Positions 2,637 to 24,151 are shown, numbered from the stretch's first letter. The stretch is 64,000 nucleotides of DNA from Pseudomonadota bacterium (GCA_043809315.1 JAZDDX010000016.1:96001-160000), one strand, 5' to 3'. Numbers and translations: made by a program. The notes: generated from the letters alone by a model not told the origin.

Positions 2637-3490
2637 CCCCGCTCCAGATCCCGATGAATGATTCGGGGGGAGTATCCGAGCCCCTTTAACTCCTTCGCGA
2701 GCTGCGTCGCCATCACCACCGACCGATGGCGCCCCCCGGTGCAACCGACCGCCACGTGCAGATAGCTCTTCCCTTCCCGTTCATAGCGGGGAATCACGAA
2801 CTCCAGCATCCGCTTCATCTCCCCGACCATCTCGCCCGCATCGGGCTGGGAAAGAACGAAATCGATCACGTCGGGATCGGTGCCGCTCTTGGTCTTGAGA
2901 TCGGCCTTGAAAAACGGGTTCGCGAGGAACCGGACATCGAAGACGAGGTCGGACTGCGTCGGTAACCCGTGTTTGTATCCAAAGGATGTCAACGTGATCG
3001 TCATCGTCTTTTCGGTCGGAGCAGCGCCATATCGCTCGGTCAGAGTCCGTCGAAGATCGGCCGACGAAAACTCGCTCGTATCGAGAACGGCGTCGGCACT
3101 CTTCCGGACGACAGCAAGCAACTTCCGCTCCTCGGCGATCCCGTCCGTCGGCGATCCCGAAGGAGAGAGCGGATGCCGGTGGCGGGTCTCGCTGAAACGA
3201 CGGACCAGAACCTCGTCCGACGCCTCCAGGAAAAGCAACTCGACGTGGAATCCATCTTTGACCGCCTTCTTGAAGATCTGCGGAAGATCCCCGATGTTGC
3301 GACGGTCCCGCGCGTCGATCACGAGCGCCAGCTTTGTGATTTCGCTGCCGAACTGCCCCGTCAACGCGAGAAGTTGAGGCAGGATCGAGACGGGAAGGTT
3401 GTCGATGCAGTAGTACCCGAGATCCTCGAGCGTCTTGACCGCGGAGGATTTCCCGGAACCGGAATACCCGGAGATTACGAGGGCCCGCAA
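2633..3490 (-). CDS. rapZ: RNase adapter / P-loop protein RapZ (YvcJ family)
   Basis: SGYSGSGKS, YCIDNLP, RRFSETRHRHP, SFGYKHG, DVRFLANP, GCTGGRHRSV; TTG start with GGAG RBS. Confidence 0.95.
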   Translation of the reverse strand: MRALVISGYSGSGKSSAVKTLEDLGYYCIDNLPVSILPQLLALTGQFGSEITKLALVIDARDRRNIGDLPQIFKKAVKDGFHVELLFLEASDEVLVRRFSETRHRHPLSPSGSPTDGIAEERKLLAVVRKSADAVLDTSEFSSADLRRTLTERYGAAPTEKTMTITLTSFGYKHGLPTQSDLVFDVRFLANPFFKADLKTKSGTDPDVIDFVLSQPDAGEMVGEMKRMLEFVIPRYEREGKSYLHVAVGCTGGRHRSVVMATQLAKELKGLGYSPRIIHRDLERG

Positions 3491-4862: not shown

Positions 4863-6308
4863 TTAAAAGAGTCGCTTCCGTTTGGAAGACGACAGGATTC
4901 CAAGCATTTCGCGGTATTTCGCGACGGTCCGTCGCGCGATATCGATGTTGTTCTGTCGAAGTAGTTCCACCACCTCCTGGTCGCTGTATGGCTTCCGGCC
5001 ATCCTCCCCCGTGATGATCTCCCGGATCCGCTCCTTGACCGCTTCCGACGCCACGTCCGCCCCCTCGACCCTCCGGATGCTCGAGTTGAAAAAGAATTTC
5101 AACTCAAAGATCCCCTGCGGGGTATGGACGTATTTGTTCGACGTGACCCGGCTGACTGTCGACTCGTGCATCCCGATGTCCTCAGCGACGTCCCGCAAGA
5201 CCATGGGATGGAGATACGTGATCCCACGGTCGAGAAAGTCCTTCTGCATCTTCACGATCGACTCGGTCACTTTGTAGATCGTCCTCTGCCGCTGATGGAT
5301 CGAACGAATCAGCCAGACCGCGGAGCGGAGCCGGTCGTTGATGTACTCCTTCGTAAGTCCCGTCGATTTGTTTCCACGCAGAACGCTTTGGTAGAGGTTC
5401 GAGATCCGGAGTTTCGGGAGTCCGTCCTCGTTCTGAACGATCATGTACTCGTCTTTGACCTTATAGACGTAAATGTCGGGGGTGATGTACTGGGCGCTCT
5501 CATCGTAGAACTGGCGCCCCGGTTTCGGTTCCAGCGCGGAGACCGCTTTGACTGCAACGATCACGGTCTCCATATCCGAATCGGTCGCTTTGGCGATCGC
5601 CGGATAGTTCTTCCGTTCCAGATCGCTCAAATGATCTTGGATGATCCTTCGCACGAGAGAGTCATTGGGGAGCTGCTTCGTCTGGATCAGGAGACATTCC
5701 CGCAGGTCGCGGGCGCCGACGCCGATCGGGTCGAGTTCCTGGATCCGCGCCAGAACATGCTCCACCTCGTCTTCGGTACAACGAAGCTTAGAGGCCAGCT
5801 CCTCCGCCGTCGCCCGGAGATACCCGTCCTCATCGAGGTTCCCGAGGATCACCTCGGCGACTTTCTGTTCCCGTTCGTCGAAGCGGGAGAGCTTGACCTG
5901 CCAGAGGAGGTGTTCGGTCAGCGTGTCGGAACGGGTGAGAGATGATTCGAAGCTCGGAAGGTCCGGGTCAACGTCACGGTAGGTGTTGTCCCCGACCGCG
6001 CGGTACGGCTGGCTGTTGAGGTAGTTCTCCCAATTGATGTCGTCCGTCCCCTCCCCTTTGGCCGGATTCACCTCCTGAGTCTTCTCCTCTTTCGCCTTGG
6101 CCTTCTTCTGCTCGTCTTCCTCCTCCTTCTCGACCTCCTCGCTTCCATCCAGCCCTTCCTCGAGAACCGGGTTCTCGAGCATCTCCGTCATGCAGTGCTC
6201 GGCCAATTCGAGACGATTCAGTTGCAGCAGCTTGATCGCTTGCTGCAACTGCGGCGTCATTACGAGTTGTTGGCTTAGGCGGAGACTCTGTTTGAGTTCA
6301 AGAGCCAT
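4863..6308 (-). CDS. rpoN: RNA polymerase sigma-54 factor
   Basis: MALELKQSLRLSQQLVMTPQLQQAIKLLQL start, HESTVSR helix-turn-helix, RpoN box ARRTVAKYRE. Confidence 0.97.
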   Translation of the reverse strand: MALELKQSLRLSQQLVMTPQLQQAIKLLQLNRLELAEHCMTEMLENPVLEEGLDGSEEVEKEEEDEQKKAKAKEEKTQEVNPAKGEGTDDINWENYLNSQPYRAVGDNTYRDVDPDLPSFESSLTRSDTLTEHLLWQVKLSRFDEREQKVAEVILGNLDEDGYLRATAEELASKLRCTEDEVEHVLARIQELDPIGVGARDLRECLLIQTKQLPNDSLVRRIIQDHLSDLERKNYPAIAKATDSDMETVIVAVKAVSALEPKPGRQFYDESAQYITPDIYVYKVKDEYMIVQNEDGLPKLRISNLYQSVLRGNKSTGLTKEYINDRLRSAVWLIRSIHQRQRTIYKVTESIVKMQKDFLDRGITYLHPMVLRDVAEDIGMHESTVSRVTSNKYVHTPQGIFELKFFFNSSIRRVEGADVASEAVKERIREIITGEDGRKPYSDQEVVELLRQNNIDIARRTVAKYREMLGILSSSKRKRLF

Positions 6309-8281: not shown

Positions 8282-8494
8282 ATGAAGACGACGTCTCTCT
8301 CCACGGTGATCGGAGCCCCGGTCAAAAGCGCGGTGGTCGAATTCTGCCGCCGGAAGGGACTGAAGTTGCGACATTTCATCGAGGAGGCCCTTCTGGAGCG
8401 GTTGGAAGACGAACTTGATTTAGAGACTTTTCGGGCACGGAAGAACGAGGAGACGGTCTCGTTCGAAGAGGTCCTCCGAAGCCGAAAGAAGTAG
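8282..8494 (+). CDS. Putative type II antitoxin
   Basis: Small ORF upstream of RelE, with acidic C-terminus EEALLERLEDELD...ETVSFEEV typical of RelB-like partners. Confidence 0.75.
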   Translation: MKTTSLSTVIGAPVKSAVVEFCRRKGLKLRHFIEEALLERLEDELDLETFRARKNEETVSFEEVLRSRKK

Positions 8495-14651: not shown

Positions 14652-14739
14652 GCAAACGGCCTTATACCATTACGCTTGACACCTCCAAAGCGTGCCTCCT
14701 AACATGCGCCCCGGCTTCAGCACTGGGGCGAATCAGGAA

Positions 14740-15021
14740 ATGACGAAAGCGGAGTTCATTGAGCGGGTATTCAGGGACAATCGTCCGCGGAGGATTCCAC
14801 GTGTGGCGATCGCCGAGATGGTGGAAGCCGCGTTCGAACTGATCGCCAAGGGGGTCAAGCGGGACGGGAAGTTCACTTATCCGGGATTCGGGGCCTTCCT
14901 GCTTAGGAAGCGGAACGCCCGGGCCGGGCGGAACCCGAAGACCGGTGAACCTCTCACGATTCCGGCCAACCAGACCGCTTCGTTCCGTGCGGCTCCGAAA
15001 TTGAGACAGTCCCTTCGTTGA
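14740..15021 (+). CDS. HU/IHF-family DNA-binding protein
   Basis: MTKAEF...FTYPGFGAF...RAGRNPKTGE...FRAAPKL; sigma70-like TTGACA...TAACAT at 14676-14705. Confidence 0.92.
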   Translation: MTKAEFIERVFRDNRPRRIPRVAIAEMVEAAFELIAKGVKRDGKFTYPGFGAFLLRKRNARAGRNPKTGEPLTIPANQTASFRAAPKLRQSLR

Positions 15022-15058: not shown

Positions 15059-16723
15059 ATGATCGAGCTTTCCCTCTTCAAAATGGACGAGGAAGTCATG
15101 AAGTACTTCCTCAACAAAGAGACCACCACGATCGGGCGCGCCAGCACCAACGACATCTGCCTGCCCGACCCCGCGATCTCCCGGACCCACTTCGTGATCC
15201 TGCGCGCGGAAGAACGGTACGTCGCCACCGACCAGTCGACGAACGGGACGTTCGTGAACGAACAACGGATCTCCAGCCACGAACTCAAGATCAACGACGT
15301 GATCCGCGTTGGGACCTGGACGATCCGGTTCGGATCGGCCAAGTCCGAGGAGGCGGAAGCTACCGACGTGGGGTTCCGCGATCCGACCCGCGTCCTCTCC
15401 TACCGCCCGGACCGGAGCGAGTTGGTCTGCGAGCGGGGGATGATCGAACTCCAGACCACCCCCAAGAAGACGATCGCGATCACGAGATCGATGACGACGA
15501 TCGGAAAAGCGAAATCGAACCACATCGTCCTCGGCGATGACTTCGCTTCGAACTACCATTGCCGGATCGACAACCGGAAGGGGACCTATTTCCTGAAAGA
15601 TCTCCAGAGCACGAACGGAACCAAATTGAACGGACAGAAGATCATCGAAGCCGCGCTGGCGTTCAATTCGGTGATCGAGATCGGGCGAACGCGCCTCCGC
15701 TTCTTCTCCGCCGAAGAGGTCCAAACACTGGAACCGGCCCGGGAGGCTGATTTCGAAGGGATGCATTCCGATCATCCGAGAATGCGCGAGATCTTCGCCC
15801 TGATCCGGCGGATCGCCCCGTCGGACGCCACGGCTTTGATCCAGGGGGAGTCCGGAACCGGGAAAGAACTTGTAGCGCGGGCGATCCACAACGCAAGCGG
15901 CCGAGACAAGAGAAAGTTCGTCGCCATCAACTGCAGCGCCATCTCGAAAGATCTGATCGAGAGCGAGCTGTTCGGGCACGAGAAGGGGGCGTTCACCTCG
16001 GCCCACCAGCAACGCCACGGGGTCTTCGAACAGGCGAACGGCGGTACCCTCCTACTGGACGAGATCGGCGAGATGCCGCTCGATCTCCAGCCGAAACTGC
16101 TGCGCACACTCGAAACCGGAGAGATCAAGCGGGTCGGCGGCACGACGCTGATCCATGTCGATGTCCGGATCGTGGCCGCAACCAACAAAGACCTCTCCGC
16201 GGAGGTCCGGAAGGGGCGGTTCCGGGAGGATCTCTTCTTCCGCCTGTTCGTGGTACCGATCCAGGTGCCGCCGCTTCGCGAGCGGCCACGGGACATCCCT
16301 CTCCTGGTCGAGTCATTCCTCGAACAGGAGTTGGCGAAGCAAAAAGGGAAGCAGGTCCGGAAGATCGACCCGCAGGCGATGGATCTCCTGATGGATTACA
16401 CCTGGCCGGGGAACGTGCGCGAACTCAAGAACGTGATCAGCCGCGCGGTCCTCGACTGCCGCACCGAAACGATCGGTGCGGGGGACCTGCAGTTCGCCCC
16501 GGCGGGAACGCGGGAACGGACCGCGTACGAATACGACGGCACGCAGAACGAGCCTCAGACCTTCACGAAGACGCTCCGGGACGTCGAGAAGGATCGGATT
16601 CTCCAGGAACTCGAACGACAGAACTGGAACAAAAAAGCGACCGCCCGGACCTTAGGGATCGCGAAGTCGACCCTACACGAGAAGCTCAAGCGCTACGGGA
16701 TCACGGACAAAGAAGAAGACTAG
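15059..16723 (+). CDS. Sigma54-dependent activator with two FHA domains (FHA-FHA-AAA+-HTH)
   Basis: Two FHA patterns (IGR...ISRTH...DQSTNGT and IGK...ASNYH...DLQSTNGT), GESGTGKE, ELFGHEKGAFTSA, WPGNVRELKN, Fis-type HTH. Confidence 0.93.
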   Translation: MIELSLFKMDEEVMKYFLNKETTTIGRASTNDICLPDPAISRTHFVILRAEERYVATDQSTNGTFVNEQRISSHELKINDVIRVGTWTIRFGSAKSEEAEATDVGFRDPTRVLSYRPDRSELVCERGMIELQTTPKKTIAITRSMTTIGKAKSNHIVLGDDFASNYHCRIDNRKGTYFLKDLQSTNGTKLNGQKIIEAALAFNSVIEIGRTRLRFFSAEEVQTLEPAREADFEGMHSDHPRMREIFALIRRIAPSDATALIQGESGTGKELVARAIHNASGRDKRKFVAINCSAISKDLIESELFGHEKGAFTSAHQQRHGVFEQANGGTLLLDEIGEMPLDLQPKLLRTLETGEIKRVGGTTLIHVDVRIVAATNKDLSAEVRKGRFREDLFFRLFVVPIQVPPLRERPRDIPLLVESFLEQELAKQKGKQVRKIDPQAMDLLMDYTWPGNVRELKNVISRAVLDCRTETIGAGDLQFAPAGTRERTAYEYDGTQNEPQTFTKTLRDVEKDRILQELERQNWNKKATARTLGIAKSTLHEKLKRYGITDKEED

Positions 16724-16728
16724 CTTCG

Positions 16729-17013
16729 CTATTTGTTCAACGATTGTTTGAGCGCCGCCGAGGGACGGAACAGGACACTCTTCGACGCCGCGAAGACGGT
16801 CTCCTGACCGGTCTGCGGGTTCCGCCCTTTCCGCTCTTTTCTCTTGCGGACGAGGAACGTGCCGAATCCGGGATAGGAGAAACGTCGGCCACGGCGGATC
16901 GCCAGCGCGAGGTTGTCGAACATGCTTTCCACCAGGTCGGAGGCGGCGGCCTTCGAAAGATTCCTGCGTTTGCAGCTCACCACCAGTTTCTCGACCAAAT
17001 CCTGTTTCGTCAT
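16729..17013 (-). CDS. HU/IHF-family DNA-binding protein
   Basis: MTKQDL...FSYPGFGTF...RKGRNPQTGQ...FRPSAALK. Confidence 0.92.
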   Translation of the reverse strand: MTKQDLVEKLVVSCKRRNLSKAAASDLVESMFDNLALAIRRGRRFSYPGFGTFLVRKRKERKGRNPQTGQETVFAASKSVLFRPSAALKQSLNK

Positions 17014-17094: not shown

Positions 17095-17613
17095 ATGCGA
17101 ATCGACCGCCGCTCCATCGCCCTGGTTCTTTCCCTTTCCCTCCTCCCCGCCTGCGCCTCCAAGAACTTCCGCGAACCGGAAGCGAGCGGAGATACGGAAA
17201 CCTCCGTCGCCCGTACGTTCCAGCGCAGCTACACCGACGTCTGGAACGCCGCCATCGGCGCCTTGGGGGAGAAGAAATACGCGATCGCCACCTCGAAGCG
17301 TGAAGGGGGCGTTCTCATCACCGACTGGATTTCCGGGAAATCAGACCGACTCTTCTCCGGGTATGGCGACACGCGGATTCCCTATTCGGTCCGCTTCCGG
17401 ATGACGCTCAAACTGACCCCGACCCGGGACGGCGTCCGCGTCGCGGTCCGGAACGAGGAGCAGTACCTTTCGGACGTGATTACGGCGGGAACCGACTTCA
17501 CCGGATCGCTCTACCAGTGGATCGGCACACAGAGTTCGGGCGCGAAGGAGAGTTCGCTCCTCGCGAGCCTGGCGGAATCGATTTCAGCGTCCAGCCCGAG
17601 GGAAAAGAAATAA
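17095..17613 (+). CDS. Lipoprotein, possibly with a BamC-like domain
   Basis: Lipobox LPAC; YTDVWNAAIGAL...GGVLITDW pattern resembles BamC-like domains. Confidence 0.65.
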   Translation: MRIDRRSIALVLSLSLLPACASKNFREPEASGDTETSVARTFQRSYTDVWNAAIGALGEKKYAIATSKREGGVLITDWISGKSDRLFSGYGDTRIPYSVRFRMTLKLTPTRDGVRVAVRNEEQYLSDVITAGTDFTGSLYQWIGTQSSGAKESSLLASLAESISASSPREKK

Positions 17614-19097
17614 CGGCCCCGGCGACGGAAAACCCGCGGTTCGGGAAGTACTCGCTCCTCGCGAAGCTCGGCTCCGGCGGGATGGCTGAAGTCTTCAAGG
17701 CCTCCCTCATCAACAAGCCCGACTACATCATCGCGATCAAACGGATTCTCCCCCAGTTCTCCCGGCACCGGGAGCTGGTGAACATGCTGGTGGCGGAAGC
17801 GGGGCTCACGACCGGCCTCGCTCACCCCAACATCGTCCCGATTCTCGATTTCGGAGCGGTCGGCGACATCTACTTCATCGCCATGGAGTACATCCACGGC
17901 AAGGACTTGAAGTCGATCATCATCCGCCTCAAAACGAGAAAGGCGGAGTTCCCGATCCCGCTCGCGATCCACGTGATGACCCAAGTCCTGCGGGGCCTCG
18001 ATTACGCCCATCACAAGTGCGACAAGTACGGAAAGGCGCTGCAACTCGTTCACCGCGACATCTCGCCGCAAAACGTGATGATCTCGTTCACCGGAACGAT
18101 CAAGATCCTCGACTTCGGGATCGCGAAGGCGGGCACCCGCTCCCGTGACACCGAGAGCGGGATCCTGAAGGGGAAGTTCTCCTACATGTCCCCCGAGCAG
18201 GCGTACGGGGAGAACGTCGACCCGCGCACCGACGTCTTCGCGGCCGGGATCGTCCTCTGGGAGCTCCTGACCCTCAAGTACTGCTTCGACGGGGAAACCG
18301 ATCTCGATTTACTCCGGAACGTGCGGGCCGCGCGCGTACGCAATCCATCCTCGGTCAACAAGAAGGTGCCGCCCGAGCTTTCGGAGATCGTCTTGAAGGC
18401 GCTCGAGCGGAAGCCGAGAAAACGGTATTCCAGCGCCGGCGAATTCGCCGACGCTCTCGAGACCTATCAGAAGGATCGCTTCGGAGTTCTGACCGAGGCC
18501 GACACCGCGGCCTTTCTTCGGAGCCTGTACGACGTATCCCTTCATGAGGTCGAGACCCCCGCAGTCGCTTACCGCGTTCCCGATCCTCCTTCGGGAGAGC
18601 AGGCGATCTCGGCCTCCTTCCGGGCCCCATGGGTCCGTAGGGCCCCGGAGTGGCTCGCACAGATCCCGAAATCGGTTTTCGTCATTCTGGCCGTCATCTT
18701 GTTGTTCCGGATCGTTTCGCCGGGGAAGATCTTTCTCCGGTACGACCGGACCGTGGTGAACATGGCCGCCCGCTTCCACGCCTGGCGCCGATCGAACACC
18801 GCCGCCCCTCCCGAAGCCCCCCCCTCGTCGGGGGCTTCCGGTAGCCAGCCTTTCTACACGGTCCAGATCGCCCCCGGCGCCCAGCGGATCCTGGACGACC
18901 TCCCGTTCGAAACGTTCGAACGGCTGCGGGATTTCATCACCGACCTCTCGGCCGACCCGAGGCCGCGCGGAGTACGGGCGATTCCGGAACGCCCCTCCTC
19001 GTTCGGCGTACCGATTTCAGGATTCCGGATTGTTTATCAGATGAACGATCTTCCGCGGACCATCACGGTCGAGCAGGTTCAAAAAACGGCCCCGTGA
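17610..19097 (+). CDS. Hanks-type Ser/Thr kinase with hydrophobic segment and C-terminal RelE-like domain
   Basis: LGSGGMAEVFKA, AIKR, HRDISPQN, DFGIAK, YMSPEQ; start uncertain (in-frame ATA at 17610 overlapping the upstream TAA, or GTG at 17517). Confidence 0.9.
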   Translation: MTAPATENPRFGKYSLLAKLGSGGMAEVFKASLINKPDYIIAIKRILPQFSRHRELVNMLVAEAGLTTGLAHPNIVPILDFGAVGDIYFIAMEYIHGKDLKSIIIRLKTRKAEFPIPLAIHVMTQVLRGLDYAHHKCDKYGKALQLVHRDISPQNVMISFTGTIKILDFGIAKAGTRSRDTESGILKGKFSYMSPEQAYGENVDPRTDVFAAGIVLWELLTLKYCFDGETDLDLLRNVRAARVRNPSSVNKKVPPELSEIVLKALERKPRKRYSSAGEFADALETYQKDRFGVLTEADTAAFLRSLYDVSLHEVETPAVAYRVPDPPSGEQAISASFRAPWVRRAPEWLAQIPKSVFVILAVILLFRIVSPGKIFLRYDRTVVNMAARFHAWRRSNTAAPPEAPPSSGASGSQPFYTVQIAPGAQRILDDLPFETFERLRDFITDLSADPRPRGVRAIPERPSSFGVPISGFRIVYQMNDLPRTITVEQVQKTAP

Positions 19098-19956: not shown

Positions 19957-20901
19957 ATGATCAAGCTCCTTCTGGCACGGCCGCGCGGGTTCTGCGCCGG
20001 CGTCGTGCGCGCCATCGACACCGTCGAGCTGGCGCTCAAACATTTCGGGACGCCATTGTACGTCCGGAAGGAGATCGTGCACAACCAGGCTGTGGTGCAG
20101 GAGTTTCGCAAACGGGGGGTGCAGTTCATCGACGAGCTGAACGAGGCTCCCAAGGGGAGCCGCGTGATCTTCAGCGCCCACGGGGTATCTCCCGCGGTCC
20201 GGGAGGAGGCGGAGCTGCGCAACCTGAACGTCATCGACGCCACCTGCCCTCTCGTGACCAAAGTCCATGCGGAGGTTCATCGCTTCCGCAAGAACGGGTA
20301 CTCCATCATCCTGGTCGGACACGAGGAGCACGAAGAGGTCCAAGGAACGATGGGGGAAGCCCCCGAGGCGATTCGAGTGGTCGGTTCCGTCGAGGATGTC
20401 GAAAAGGTGACGGTTCCCAATCCGTCGAGAGTGGTCGCACTGACACAGACCACGCTCTCGGTCGACGAGACCCGCGACATCATCGACGCCCTCCGGAAGA
20501 AGTTCCCGAAGCTCGAATGTCCGGCCAAAGAGGATATCTGTTATGCGACCCAGAACCGGCAGGACGCAGTCAAGATCCTGGTCGGGAAAGGGATCGATCT
20601 TCTCCTCGTCGTCGGATCGAAAAACAGCTCGAACTCGAAGCGACTCTGCGAGGTGGCGCGCGCCTTGGGGGTCGAAGCGCACCTGATCGACCGTGCGTCC
20701 GAGATCGAAAAGAAGTGGCTCGCCGGAAAAACGAAACTGGGTTTGACGGCGGGGGCCTCGGCCCCGGAATACCTGGTTGCCGATGTCGTTCGATACCTGG
20801 AATCGGCCGGCGCGGTGACGGAAGAGCTGGATCTGGTCGAGGAGCACGTGAGCTTCGCGCTTCCGGTCGAGATGAGCGAGATGCTCAACATCCCGCGATA
20901 G
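19957..20901 (+). CDS. ispH: 4-hydroxy-3-methylbut-2-enyl diphosphate reductase
   Basis: PRGFCAGVVRA, EIVHN, FSAHG, DATCPLV, DICYATQNRQ, NSSNS, TAGASAP. Confidence 0.97.
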   Translation: MIKLLLARPRGFCAGVVRAIDTVELALKHFGTPLYVRKEIVHNQAVVQEFRKRGVQFIDELNEAPKGSRVIFSAHGVSPAVREEAELRNLNVIDATCPLVTKVHAEVHRFRKNGYSIILVGHEEHEEVQGTMGEAPEAIRVVGSVEDVEKVTVPNPSRVVALTQTTLSVDETRDIIDALRKKFPKLECPAKEDICYATQNRQDAVKILVGKGIDLLLVVGSKNSSNSKRLCEVARALGVEAHLIDRASEIEKKWLAGKTKLGLTAGASAPEYLVADVVRYLESAGAVTEELDLVEEHVSFALPVEMSEMLNIPR

Positions 20902-20916
20902 ATTTCGAAACAGCAC

Positions 20917-20951
20917 AAAAGAAAAGAGGCCTCTTCAAGAAGGCCCCTTTT
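20917..20951. terminator. Bidirectional intrinsic terminator
   Basis: AAAAGAAAAGAGGCC-TCTTCAAGAA-GGCCCCTTTT; the longer U-tract is on the minus strand. Confidence 0.8.
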
Positions 20952-21081
20952 CTCTCAGCTTCTGCCTAGCAATAATCTTTAGCTTCAGCCCAGGACTGCC
21001 CTTCCCCCCGGAGGCAGTTTCTGCTGGGGGCTCCTGAAAGTCTCTCTCCCGTCCAAGAGCCCCCTGCTTCCCCGTTATGCG
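20917..21081 (-). ncRNA. Candidate sigma54-dependent small RNA (~165 nt, three stem-loops)
   Basis: Lies between a -24/-12 promoter (21092-21108) and a terminator; 13-bp stem SL1 (21026-21064), SL2 (20995-21018); no ATG-initiated ORF. Confidence 0.6.
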
Positions 21082-21091
21082 CGATTTAAAC

Positions 21092-21108
21092 AGCAGGGTT
21101 CGTGCCAA
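21092..21108 (-). promoter_or_regulatory. Sigma54 -24/-12 promoter
   Basis: TTGGCACGAACCCTGCT, near consensus TGGCACG-N4-TTGC. Confidence 0.8.
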
Positions 21109-21134
21109 ATATTGCGAAAATCAGATCCGAATCA

Positions 21135-21235
21135 TATCAAGCACTTTCGACGCAGGTTCCCAAACCCTGGTGATCTTTAGACACCAAAATAGGAAAAAAC
21201 TGGAGTCAAAATGGCTTGTTCGAGGTCAAAATGAC
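21135..21235. promoter_or_regulatory. IHF-like site plus tandem enhancer-like repeats
   Basis: TATCAAGCACTTT (21135-21147) vs WATCAANNNNTTR; GTCAAAATG at 21205 and 21225, the second inside palindrome GGTCA-AAA-TGACC. Confidence 0.55.
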
Positions 21236-21291: not shown

Positions 21292-21990
21292 ATGTTACAT
21301 TGCGTCATCGTGCCCCACAAAGCCATTCGTCTCGCGGCCATCTTCGGATGCATCTTGCTTTTGACGACCTCTTCCTTCGCCCAACGAAAGGGGAAGAAGT
21401 CGTCGGACAAGCCTTTGGAATTTTCCTCCTGCGATCTCGTCGTCGATCGGTCGGTATACGCGGAATGGGGAGTCAATGCGGTTCATGGCGGCGCCTTCTA
21501 CAGCGACACGAAACTTCTCAGTTACGCCAAAGTGGACAAACCGGGTGGAGAATTTCAGATCGTGCCCCGCATGCCGACCTTGGAAGAAGTTGAGATCGGC
21601 ACCATCGTTCTCGGCTCCACATCCCCTCTGGCTTCTAGGAACCCGAAGCAGGGTTGCTGGACAAAGGTCACCGGGAAAGCTCCGCTCAACATCTCGGACA
21701 TTTCGGTTGTCCACCTTCAATACGCTTTGCCGAAGGTCCCCGCTCTTCTCGAGCTCTACACGACCCCCAAACAACTCTTCTTCGTCGAGCACGGAGGAAC
21801 GTTTTCGTTCGAGTCGGCAGAGAACCTTCAATCCACGAGAGATCGGCTGTTCGGTCCGAAGGAATTGTTGGAGCTTAAGAAGACAGACCAGGTGTCCGCC
21901 GCGCCCGCCCGCCTCTGGGCCTTGTATACCGAGATCGGGAACTATTACGTCAGCGCCTCGGGCAACGGATTCGTTCTTGTGAAAGACTGA
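21292..21990 (+). CDS. Exported protein with degenerate (inactive) Hint-like domain
   Basis: Signal peptide ending SSFA; aligns by eye with the downstream Hint protein (AFYSDTKL, IGTIVLGST, GCWTKVT, TEIGNYYV...VLVKD); alternative GTG start 21310. Confidence 0.75.
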   Translation: MLHCVIVPHKAIRLAAIFGCILLLTTSSFAQRKGKKSSDKPLEFSSCDLVVDRSVYAEWGVNAVHGGAFYSDTKLLSYAKVDKPGGEFQIVPRMPTLEEVEIGTIVLGSTSPLASRNPKQGCWTKVTGKAPLNISDISVVHLQYALPKVPALLELYTTPKQLFFVEHGGTFSFESAENLQSTRDRLFGPKELLELKKTDQVSAAPARLWALYTEIGNYYVSASGNGFVLVKD

Positions 21991-22124
21991 TTGCTTCGAC
22001 CGTCGGGCCCTTGATCCGGCCGAGCGAACCGCGATCGTCGCCAGCGTCCGCGCGGCAACGGGCCTCCCCTCTATTGGTTAAAAGCTGGACAACCGGACCG
22101 AGAATACTACGATGCGTCATATCT

Positions 22125-22994
22125 ATGACGTCCAAACGACGCTGTCTCGTCCTCTTCGCCCTTTTCTTCCTTTCCTCGGTTCCGACCGTCTCGGCCGAAT
22201 CGTGGAAAGCGGTGACCCAAAAGATCCAACACGCGGGGATCCAGGCAATTGAGGAGCAGTACGCGTCGATGCCGCCGTTCTACAAGTACTTCGATTACCC
22301 CGTCTGTAAGGAGATCCTCGACCGCCGCGCCGCCGAGGATGCCGACCGCCGTGCCTACGGCGCCGAGTACGGCCTGAAGCCGCTCAAGAGGATCTCGGGA
22401 GGAAAAGCGGAAGAGGAGTTCGAGATCCACCATCGGGTCAAGAAGGAGTGCTCTCCGGCGGGCGACGTTCCTTGTTTCGCGAGCAACACGAAAATCGTGA
22501 AGCTCGACCGCACGCCGACCGGTGACCGCGTGATCGAAACCGAGATCGCCGCGCTTCGAAAAGGGGACTACGTCCTCGGTTCCACCGCCGATCAAGCTCG
22601 CGAGGAGCGGTACCAGGTCCGCGCCTGCTGGACGCAGGTCACCGAAGCGCCGTACGAAGGGGAAATGAAGGAGGGGGATTCGTACTTGACGATCATGTAT
22701 CGAAGAGAGGGAGAACTCCTGGCCGACAAACAGACGTTGGACGTCACGACCCACCATCGCGTGCGGGCCACCTATTGGGGGGGACGGATGCTCTGGATCG
22801 ACGCCATCCGCTTGGTCCGCGGCTACCGCATCTACGGAGCCGACGGGACGTTCGTTCTCGAGGCCAAGCCGAAATTACACAAGGTCGGGGGAGAGAAACA
22901 GACCGTCACGAACCTCCAGACCGAAACCGGGAACTACTTCATCGGGCCGAAGGGGAGCGCCATCCTCGCCCACAATGAAGGAGTCTGCACGTAG
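22125..22994 (+). CDS. Exported Hint (intein-like/BIL/PT-HINT type) domain protein
   Basis: Signal peptide ending VSA; Hint from CFASNTKI (22473), IAALRKGDYVL, TTHH block B, NLQTETGNYFI...LAHN (22976), tail EGVCT. Confidence 0.85.
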   Translation: MTSKRRCLVLFALFFLSSVPTVSAESWKAVTQKIQHAGIQAIEEQYASMPPFYKYFDYPVCKEILDRRAAEDADRRAYGAEYGLKPLKRISGGKAEEEFEIHHRVKKECSPAGDVPCFASNTKIVKLDRTPTGDRVIETEIAALRKGDYVLGSTADQAREERYQVRACWTQVTEAPYEGEMKEGDSYLTIMYRREGELLADKQTLDVTTHHRVRATYWGGRMLWIDAIRLVRGYRIYGADGTFVLEAKPKLHKVGGEKQTVTNLQTETGNYFIGPKGSAILAHNEGVCT

Positions 22995-22996
22995 CT

Positions 22997-24151
22997 TTAC
23001 AGTCCTCTGAACGCCGCACCGAGATCGGCCACGAGATCCTCGTGGTGTTCGATCCCGACCGACAGGCGGATAAAGCCGTCGGTAATCCCGAGCTTCGTTC
23101 GCACATCGGCCGGCAGGCTCGCGTGCGTCATGATCGCCGGGTGCTCGATCAGGGACTCCACGCCACCCAAACTCTCCGCGAGCGTGAAGACTTGGAGCGC
23201 CGACAGGAAACGCTTCGTTTCGGCCAGCGACGCCTTGAGATAGACGCTCACCATCCCGCCGAAGTCGCGCATCTGTTTCTTCGCGAGCGCGTGCTGCGGA
23301 TGGGACGGATCGCCGGGATAGATCACGCGATCCACTTTCGGCTGCTTTTGCAGGAACTCCACCACCTTCTTGGCGTTCGCGCAGTGCCGGTCCATCCGGA
23401 CCGCGAGCGTCTTTAAGCCCCGCAACGTCAGCCACGAATCGATCGGTCCCGGCGTCGCCCCGATCGATTTCTGCAGGAACTTCACCTGGTCGAACAGCTC
23501 TTTCGTTTTGAGGATCACCGCCCCGCCGACCACGTCCGAGTGCCCGCCGATATACTTCGTCGTCGAGTGCACGACGACGTCGGCGCCGAGCGCCAGCGGG
23601 TTCTGCAAGTACGGCGTCGCGAACGTGTTGTCGACCACCGTCAGGATCTTTCGTTTCGAAGCCTTCGCCGCGATCGCCTCGATGTCGATCAGCTTGAGTA
23701 ACGGGTTCGTCGGCGTCTCGATCCAGACCATTTTCGTAGCCGGTGTCATCGCCTCGTCCAGGGCGGACGGGTCCGTGAGGTCGACGAACGTGAACGAAAA
23801 ACCGCGCGACGCGAGAACCTGCGAAAACAGACGATACGTTCCGCCATAAACATCGTCGCAACAGACGACATGGCTCCCCTCGGGCAGAACGTGCGCCAAC
23901 GTCGCCATCCCACCGAGACCGGAGGAGAAGGCCAGGCCGTACTCCGACCCCTCCAGCGAAGCGAGACAATCCTCCAAGGCCTTGCGCGTCGGGTTGTCGG
24001 CACGGGAGTAGTCGTACCCCTTATGTACCCCGGGCTCGGGCTGCGCGTACGTGCTGGTCTGGTAGATCGGCGTGATCACGGCGCCGGTCGCCGGGTCGGG
24101 CGCCTGCCCGACATGGATCGCCTTCGTCTCAAAGCGGGATTTCTCGTTCAT
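22997..24151 (-). CDS. Cystathionine gamma-lyase/synthase family PLP enzyme
   Basis: YSRADNPT, DDVYGGT, ETPTNP, VHSTTKYIGGHSD, AESLGGVESL; coupled to the CBS gene (reverse transsulfuration). Confidence 0.93.
   Translation of the reverse strand: MNEKSRFETKAIHVGQAPDPATGAVITPIYQTSTYAQPEPGVHKGYDYSRADNPTRKALEDCLASLEGSEYGLAFSSGLGGMATLAHVLPEGSHVVCCDDVYGGTYRLFSQVLASRGFSFTFVDLTDPSALDEAMTPATKMVWIETPTNPLLKLIDIEAIAAKASKRKILTVVDNTFATPYLQNPLALGADVVVHSTTKYIGGHSDVVGGAVILKTKELFDQVKFLQKSIGATPGPIDSWLTLRGLKTLAVRMDRHCANAKKVVEFLQKQPKVDRVIYPGDPSHPQHALAKKQMRDFGGMVSVYLKASLAETKRFLSALQVFTLAESLGGVESLIEHPAIMTHASLPADVRTKLGITDGFIRLSVGIEHHEDLVADLGAAFRGL

Follow-up and report, generated by a model that had tools for sequence, protein, structure and literature searches.

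A predicted sigma-54-dependent small RNA gene that converges on ispH in an uncultured candidate lineage

Immediately downstream of ispH, the 64,000-nucleotide (nt) stretch of Pseudomonadota DNA analysed here (GCA_043809315.1, JAZDDX010000016.1:96001-160000; 'the window') contains a 390-nt spacer, bounded on its other side by an open reading frame (ORF) of 232 amino acids (aa), that appears to encode a non-coding RNA about 165 nt long. The locus is a solid gene prediction, and we read it as a stand-alone gene under sigma-54 control whose product is most likely a trans-acting, Hfq-independent riboregulator; taken as a whole, we put this reading at roughly 60%. The original prediction, made by a model from the sequence of the window, had proposed a sigma-54- and enhancer-dependent, terminated non-coding RNA at this place, which is supported by elements conserved across genera and by G-U pairs that would form on one strand only. 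The genome studied (G000; 2.42 Mb, 96.13% complete) comes from an uncultured organism and was placed in a sample of 17 genomes of its phylum, which are all the species genomes of this candidate lineage in the collection and include 15 of its order. G000, G001, G002, and G004 represent four genera of one family, to which G003 also belongs; G005 represents the sister family. Coordinates are collected in Table 1.

Table 1. Predicted features of the RNA locus and of its surroundings, in coordinates of the window
Feature	Position	Strand	Remarks
Predicted non-coding RNA, about 165 nt	20917-21081	-	start from promoter spacing, end from U-tract
Upstream activator (enhancer) sites	21205-21233	-	two GTCAAAATG repeats (plus-strand letters), 20 bp apart
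IHF-like site AAAGTGCTTGATA (plus strand TATCAAGCACTTT)	21135-21147	-	about -60, in AT-rich spacer
Sigma-54 promoter TGGCACGAACCCTGCT	21092-21107	-	GG at 21105-21106, GC at 21093-21094
5' motif GGGGAAGC	21066-21073	-	predicted single-stranded; identical in four genera
Stem-loop 1 (SL1)	21026-21064	-	13-bp GC-clamped stem, purine loop CGGGAGAGAGACU, core GAGAGA
Stem-loop 2 (SL2)	20995-21018	-	ACUGCC/GGCAGU stem, G-rich loop
Purine-rich linker	20955-20993	-	12/15 direct repeat, 20979-20993 and 20955-20969
Intrinsic terminator	20916-20957	-	18 pairs, then U-tract; back-to-back with ispH
ispH	19957-20901	+	LYTB match, E = 1.1e-96
232-aa ORF	21292-21990	+	good ribosome-binding site, signal-peptide-like N terminus, no Pfam match
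metB-like gene	22997-24151	-	
IHF/HU-family gene	14692-15021	+	upstream of activator gene; NCBIfam IHF alpha 66.7 bits, cut-off 111
FHA-FHA-sigma-54 AAA+-HTH_8 enhancer-binding protein	15059-16723	+	candidate activator; domains from Pfam, link to the RNA presumed
Second IHF/HU-family gene	16729-17013	-	convergent with activator gene; IHF alpha 77.8 bits, below cut-off
Ser/Thr protein kinase	17517-19097	+	between activator gene and ispH in G000-G005
rpoN	4872-5348	-	Sigma54_DBD match (sigma-54 DNA-binding domain), 212.5 bits
rapZ	3026-3481	-	in the window, adjoins rpoN

The promoter has the form TGGCAC-N5-CTGCT and departs from the consensus TGGCAC-N5-TTGCW only by a C for T before the GC, a departure shared by 14 others of the 39 matches that the expression TGGCA[CT]N5[CT]TGC[AT] finds in the 2.42 Mb. 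By our own estimate, base composition would yield about 9 such matches, and 34 of the 39 are intergenic, where a crude gene call that covers 83% of the genome leaves 17% as intergenic space. In the alignment of the four genera, TGGCAC and TGC are invariant. The machinery that such a promoter would need is encoded in the genome, with rpoN in the window itself and 13 Sigma54_activat matches, each of at least 232 bits, in G000. Since ispH and the 232-aa ORF both lie on the plus strand, the RNA is oriented antisense to both neighbours, an arrangement somewhat unlike the one that the original prediction implied, and the nearest gene call on its own strand is 6.9 kb away.

Upstream, at about -125 to -150 from the presumed start, the plus strand has GTCAAAATG at 21205-21213 and again at 21225-21233, which is CATTTTGAC on the minus strand, the distal copy forming part of the palindrome GGTCATTTTGACC. 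The genome holds 28 copies of the 9-mer GTCAAAAYG. Nowhere else in G000 do two GTCAAAA lie within 60 bp of each other, an arrangement expected by chance about once for the 7-mer and about 0.02 times for the 9-mer. All five genera have sites related to GTGTCAAAACGC, a consensus drawn by eye, between -101 and -138; their orientation varies, and some form long palindromes. The intervening AAAGTGCTTGATA corresponds, with one mismatch, to an IHF site of the WATCAANNNNTTR type on the plus strand and lies at about -60 to -65 in G000; YAA-N4-TTGAW-like sites occupy -56 to -67 in G002, G001, and G005, and G004 has a poorer match only. The spacer from -126 to -26 is 53-65% A+T, compared with about 40% for the G000 genome. 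Activator sites some 80-150 bp upstream, often with an IHF site in between, are the layout of an enhancer-activated promoter, which this control region shows, and when we scanned the 15 order genomes for the combination of enhancer and promoter, the loci of G002, G004, and G001 were found again and none was found in G003. The scan gave nine other matches, against 3 in controls; most of them stand ahead of protein genes or seem to be due to chance, and we set them aside.

For the predicted RNA, the folding energy is -80.1 kcal/mol (z = -3.4), a stability reached by none of 200 shuffled sequences. Its most conserved part is the 5' module, in which GGGGAAGC follows the -12 element by 19-22 nt in all four genera and is succeeded by SL1; an alternative 5' hairpin, GGAAGC/GCUUCC, which is perfect in G001 and G002, is mismatched in G000 and was dropped. 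At the other end, the RNA closes in all five genera with a GC-rich hairpin and, on its own strand, a U-tract, and the G000 terminator was also detected by an independent scan, on both strands. All of the anatomy claimed in the original prediction is present in the sequence: the repeats 20 bp apart, the IHF-like site and the promoter lie on the minus strand where it had put them, as do the transcript span of about 165 nt, both upstream hairpins, the 15-nt imperfect repeat (12/15), and the terminator with its U-tract. Its description of three stem-loops stands for SL1 and the terminator and is weak for SL2, which is found in three of the four genera with z values of only -0.45 to -1.7, not significant alone, and is absent in G004. 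The SL2 equivalent in G002 and G001, CCUGAC/GUCAGG, differs from that of G000 in two pairs on both sides; SL2 is out of register in the MAFFT alignment, so these compensated pairs are read by eye only. The idea that the 15-nt repeat is a duplicated seed finds no backing, as the repeat is conserved in no relative.

How far does the gene extend beyond this genome? A blastn search of the locus against 40 relatives gave no match, and homologues were reached only through synteny at ispH, the place where the original prediction had suggested looking for them. ispH is present in 14 of the 15 order genomes, and five of the 14 loci (G000, G002, G004, G001, and G005) carry a sigma-54 promoter just downstream on the opposite strand, always within the same layout of enhancer, IHF-like site, promoter, no conserved ORF, and a terminator converging on ispH. 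In the four family members, GGGGAAGC is followed by a hairpin that is clamped by GGGG(G)CU...AGCCCC(C) and has a loop of the GAGAGA type. Their alignment has 33 invariant columns out of 98; within SL1, 96% of 51 cells are paired (7 of them as G-U), a figure that falls to 72-75% when the partners are slid by one column, and two pairs have changed on both sides (56-79, U-A/C-G; 60-78, G-C/A-U) and three on one side. A covariance model of the promoter and the 5' module (R1) scores the four family members at 78.5-92.8 bits and everything else in the 17 phylum genomes at 18.3 bits or less, and the gene is single-copy. In G005, the enhancer, IHF-like site, promoter, and terminator are kept around an RNA of about 95 nt that shares only GAGAGA-rich single-stranded sequence with the others. 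G003 and the families f3 and f4 have no such RNA, and a metB-like or other gene abuts ispH there. With its own predicted promoter and terminator, conserved sequence and structure, and no conserved ORF, the locus has the features of a stand-alone small RNA (sRNA) gene.

Searches further afield yielded one more copy. A 439-nt contig from another public run (X3, record 18) covers 20717-21178 at about 90% identity, and since it carries the 3' end of ispH together with the RNA gene, a related population keeps the locus. Its differences are unevenly spread: none is listed in the promoter or SL1, at least 3 substitutions and 2 one-base indels are listed in the RNA, at least 12 substitutions with the spacing of third codon positions in the final 185 nt of ispH, and at least 8 substitutions in 21108-21140, all of these being lower bounds because 9 of the 32 differences are unlisted, probably near the contig ends. 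The same contig has deletions of 19 bases and 6 bases at the junction of the ispH stop and the terminator. No homologue was found among 80 stretches matching a pattern of promoter plus GGGGAAGCNGGG, which R1 scored at 24.2 bits or less (53 from metagenomes) and 20.1 bits or less (27 from genome contigs, whose matches came from records other than the relatives' own). Of 15 weak R1 matches in other order genomes (18.3 bits or less), eight were inspected as alignments; they are mostly sigma-54 promoters followed by a GGGGAA resembling a ribosome-binding site and were rejected. Neither the G000 locus nor those of its relatives matches a family of Rfam 15 at the gathering score, in agreement with the original prediction that the RNA is new, and a full-text literature search, narrow in scope, found no description of the locus.

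The locus is a new RNA family within a known kind. To our knowledge, sigma-54-dependent sRNAs are known from few studied bacteria, namely as Qrr, GlmY/Z, Pxr, NrsZ, and four non-coding RNAs of Desulfovibrio. GlmY and GlmZ of the Enterobacterales have sigma-54 promoters with upstream activator and IHF sites, and the RNA described here shares with them the three-hairpin form ending in a terminator, as well as a rapZ gene beside rpoN in G000. However, their Rfam models have no match at the G000 locus at E<=10, and the conserved complementarity to the glmS leader is not seen: short complements (UUCCCC and CUCUC, 5-6 nt) occur in the glmS leader of G000 only, and in G002-G005 glmS directly follows its upstream gene (apparently glmU, by reading), where the short spacer between the two, being rich in purines, is unable to pair with a similarly purine-rich RNA, on which ground we rejected GlmZ-like targeting of glmS. 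RapZ, which the original prediction had mentioned as an sRNA adapter of enterobacteria, is indeed encoded in the window, but nothing ties it to the RNA. The pairing of rapZ with rpoN resembles the proteobacterial rpoN operon, and no RNA partner for RapZ is apparent in the lineage. The Qrr RNAs of the Vibrionaceae, controlled by LuxO and sigma-54, are likewise short, activator-dependent, trans-acting sRNAs with their own terminators; they need Hfq and usually come in several copies, whereas here Hfq was not found, the gene is single-copy, and no Rfam match was obtained.

The closest likeness is to Pxr of Myxococcus xanthus and other Cystobacterineae, which is a neighbour of the activator gene nla19, has a predicted sigma-54 promoter, and folds into three stem-loops (PMC5568312), with an SL1 loop that is essential in its Hfq-less host (PMC5684412). 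Both are stand-alone sRNAs with a predicted sigma-54 promoter and enhancer site and a multi-stem-loop fold; both have a conserved first stem-loop and a variable 3' part, a critical function of the loop being established for Pxr (PMC5684412); and both belong to Hfq-less organisms whose lineages have many activators of the FHA type and many Ser/Thr kinases (PMC5568312, PMC5684412). Unlike Pxr, which is 108 nt long and located directly downstream of the response-regulator gene nla19 and next to an NADH dehydrogenase gene (PMC5568312), the present RNA measures about 165 nt and is convergent with ispH, at a distance of 4.4 kb from the nearest activator gene; it has ispH on one side and, on the other, a metB-like gene, an SBP_bac_5 gene, or novel ORFs. 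No similarity to Pxr appeared among the Rfam matches of the G000 locus at E<=10, nor in the loci of relatives, although Rfam 15 may hold no Pxr model. The second parallel comes from Desulfovibrio vulgaris Hildenborough, where four sigma-54-dependent non-coding RNAs belong to the regulons of DVU0653, DVU0679, DVU1419, and DVU2359, are in some cases the only listed target of the enhancer-binding protein, and are reportedly of a type typical of free-living 'delta' lineages (PMC4641369). Dependence on sigma-54 and an enhancer-binding protein, here predicted, is common to both; in contrast to our RNA, most of these RNAs directly adjoin their activator gene, and the Desulfovibrio activators are response regulators or single-component regulators rather than double-FHA proteins (PMC4641369).

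Which protein, then, might activate the promoter? The double-FHA enhancer-binding protein appears the most plausible candidate because its proximity to ispH is conserved: wherever both genes are on one contig, they lie within about 5 kb of each other. We nevertheless regard the assignment as tentative, at about one chance in three. At least 14 of the 17 phylum genomes have a full-length orthologue; the best matches are partial in G008 and G014, and the one in G011 is cut at the contig end. The gene order IHF/HU-like gene, double-FHA activator, convergent IHF/HU-like gene, Ser/Thr kinase, HEAT-repeat gene, ispH, and RNA gene is conserved, and the activator is flanked by two IHF/HU-family genes in G002 and G004 as well. 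The Ser/Thr kinase is a possible source of input to the FHA domains. A logic of FHA domains and kinases is known from myxobacteria, and the proposed link to a double-FHA activator fits it.

Put together, these elements suggest the following course of events. With an enhancer-binding protein bound at the two GTCAAAAYG-type sites, some 125-150 bp upstream, and a protein of the IHF/HU type bending the AT-rich spacer at about -60, the ATPase of the activator would open the TGGCAC-N5-CTGCT promoter for sigma-54 RNA polymerase on the minus strand, so that transcription would start near 21081 and stop near 20917, at the terminator shared with ispH. The resulting RNA would present a 5' module, composed of the single-stranded GGGGAAGC and the GC-clamped hairpin with its GAGAGA-type purine loop, ahead of a variable, purine-rich body with G-rich loops. 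By analogy with Pxr, the most likely mode of action, in which we have modest confidence, would be regulation through the SL1 loop and the 5' motif, these conserved purine motifs pairing with pyrimidine-rich sites in target mRNAs without Hfq. The double-FHA activator would be the most likely driver, which would place the RNA downstream of phospho-threonine signalling. One can go further and imagine the RNA as the dedicated output of a chain that runs from the Ser/Thr kinase through phospho-threonine, read by the double-FHA activator with the IHF-like pair, to the sigma-54 promoter, with GGGGAAGC, the GAGAGA loop, and the G-runs acting on a partner not yet described, be it an RNA-binding protein or a pyrimidine-tract element; this is a speculative extension that we think improbable. 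If true, post-transcriptional control would be tied to protein phosphorylation at a place beside ispH, an isoprenoid gene.

Several observations weigh against the riboregulator reading. Target prediction, which the original prediction had proposed, brought no signal: in a duplex scan of 1891 predicted translation-start regions, the energy distributions were equal for RNA segments and reversed-sequence controls, and neither complements of GGGGAAGC (14 observed, 12.8 expected) nor those of GAGAGA (74 observed, 88 expected) are enriched near start codons. The covariation score of SL1 was reached by 10 of 500 shuffles and the two both-sided pair changes by 92 of 500; with only four clear homologues, the covariation is thin and the shuffle controls are not decisive. 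The RNA of G005 differs in sequence and has no SL1, which would mean either that the RNA evolves fast or that a different gene occupies the place in G005. The double-FHA activator is also found where the RNA is absent (G003, f3/f4), so that it is not dedicated to this RNA and maybe not its activator at all, and in G000 no GTCAAAA is present up to 1.5 kb from its gene. To this adds that the case for an RNA gene is built on DNA sequence, the four sequencing runs compared consisting of DNA contigs.

Two longer complements of the SL1 loop came up on the way: an 11-nt perfect one at G000 C15:24328 (+), inside a coding region resembling aldehyde dehydrogenase, and a 10-nt perfect one at window position 8293 (+), covering codons 4-7 of a 70-aa ribbon-helix-helix-like ORF. 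Both are within chance expectation for the genome and were rejected as targets. Judged by eye, no conserved pairing links the RNA to the start regions of genes in the neighbouring cluster.

The lack of a base-pairing signal leaves room for a protein decoy, in which the exposed purine motifs (GGGGAA, GAGAGA, GAAG, and G-runs) would titrate an RNA-binding protein in the manner of CsrB or RsmZ. The RNAs are 57-61% purine in all five genera, motifs with GGA or GAGA are repeated at the 5' end and in the loops, both that of SL1 and the G-rich ones, and the fast-evolving body keeps its composition, as sponge RNAs do. Against this, the 96%-complete genome has yielded no gene for Hfq or ProQ and no match to CsrA (PF02599) at E<=0.01. 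GGA is present within GGGGAAGC in all four genera but in the SL1 loop of only two (G000 and G002), the remaining GGAs being in unaligned regions, and a CsrC-like Rfam match reaches 12.5 bits against a gathering score of 279. No candidate binding protein came to light, and purine richness alone is weak evidence. The specific form given to this idea in the original prediction, a GGA-type sponge for CsrA, is thus not supported, and we consider a decoy in general unlikely.

A less probable alternative places the function in cis: convergent sigma-54 transcription, or antisense RNA from read-through, would lower ispH expression, and the RNA product would be secondary. It is true that ispH is the sole constant neighbour in the five genera, always convergent and sharing the terminator region, while the upstream neighbour varies between a metB-like gene, an SBP_bac_5 gene, and two inserted ORFs. 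Yet in all five genera the promoter is cut off from ispH by a strong terminator, whose U-tract lies on the RNA strand, conservation of the 5' motif and compensation in SL1 suggest that the RNA itself is under selection, and ispH does without the promoter in G003 and in families f3 and f4.

That the plus strand is the functional one, as a 6C-like RNA with C-rich loops or as the ispH terminator plus a 5' leader of the 232-aa gene, with the sigma-54 match being fortuitous, seems very improbable. The plus strand does hold both flanking genes, the terminator scores there too, and the best of the 9 sub-threshold matches returned by the Rfam scan of the G000 locus at E<=10 is to 6C on that strand (E = 0.11). 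With 28.3 bits, however, this match is far under the gathering score of 47, and the pairing favours the opposite strand, as the seven G-U cells of SL1 would become A-C mismatches. In all four genera, folding is better on the promoter strand, by 3.3-9 kcal/mol for SL1 and 10-24 kcal/mol for the whole RNA; moreover, five genera keep the sigma-54 promoter and the enhancer on the minus strand, whereas the 232-aa gene has no homologue in the 14 other order genomes. Least credible of all is an encoded small protein: in G000, a 23-codon TTG frame begins in SL1 and a 57-codon TTG frame overlaps the locus (20935-21108), but the former starts within the 13-bp stem without a spaced ribosome-binding site, the latter starts inside the promoter, upstream of the presumed RNA start, and has no Pfam match, and start codons, positions, frames, lengths, and peptides all differ among the five genera, leaving no conserved ORF.

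We would like to place the locus in a wider context. It introduces no new principle and is of moderate interest as such, but it offers a well-delimited, conserved example of a sigma-54-dependent sRNA gene from an uncultured candidate lineage, with a control region of enhancer repeats, IHF-like site, and promoter that is unusually complete and conserved. This makes it a clean test bed, as E. coli can serve as host for rebuilding the promoter, the enhancer, and the candidate activator, and it raises the question of how a purine-rich sRNA works where Hfq, CsrA, and ProQ were not found.

Some observations concern the surroundings of the gene. Between the enhancer sites and the metB-like gene, G000 has the 232-aa ORF and a second ORF (22011-22994, +), which likewise has no Pfam match; as the metB-like gene of G002 and G001 borders directly on the enhancer, the two ORFs look like an insertion specific to this genome. 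In G009 and G007 (family f4), the convergent IHF/HU gene is preceded by a conserved sigma-54-like TGGCATCTAAAATGCC (L136 ~3468, -; L137 ~1156, +), which suggests that the nucleoid-protein gene may itself be under sigma-54 control there.

Others concern the sigma-54 regulon of G000 at large. For 20 of the 39 promoter matches, no called start lies nearby; at least 17 of these 20 have an ORF with ATG or GTG within about 75 nt, and 2 are unclear. The studied locus is outside these 20, its coding status having been judged from the five-genus ORF comparison. The ORFs that follow are mostly lipoprotein- or pilin-like, and most sigma-54 promoters of G000 precede ORFs of a secreted or lipoprotein type. 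Among them are three paralogous lipoprotein-like genes (MKRFPAI.../MKQLPAV...; C15:5826, C15:8028, and C39:1143) that begin 10-15 nt after a sigma-54 promoter, two of the three promoters being identical. Sigma-54-type promoters also precede two paralogous small ORFs, at C20:94755 (+) and C34:1170 (-), whose leaders each contain a palindrome with GTGTACAC; by their sequence, the ORFs may be toxins of the HicA type. At C38:33608 (+), a sigma-54 promoter and a strong ribosome-binding site are followed by a 21-codon ORF, MMNERQKKMMGDAGYALSPLM, and then by a longer gene, so that the short ORF could be a leader peptide or a small protein.

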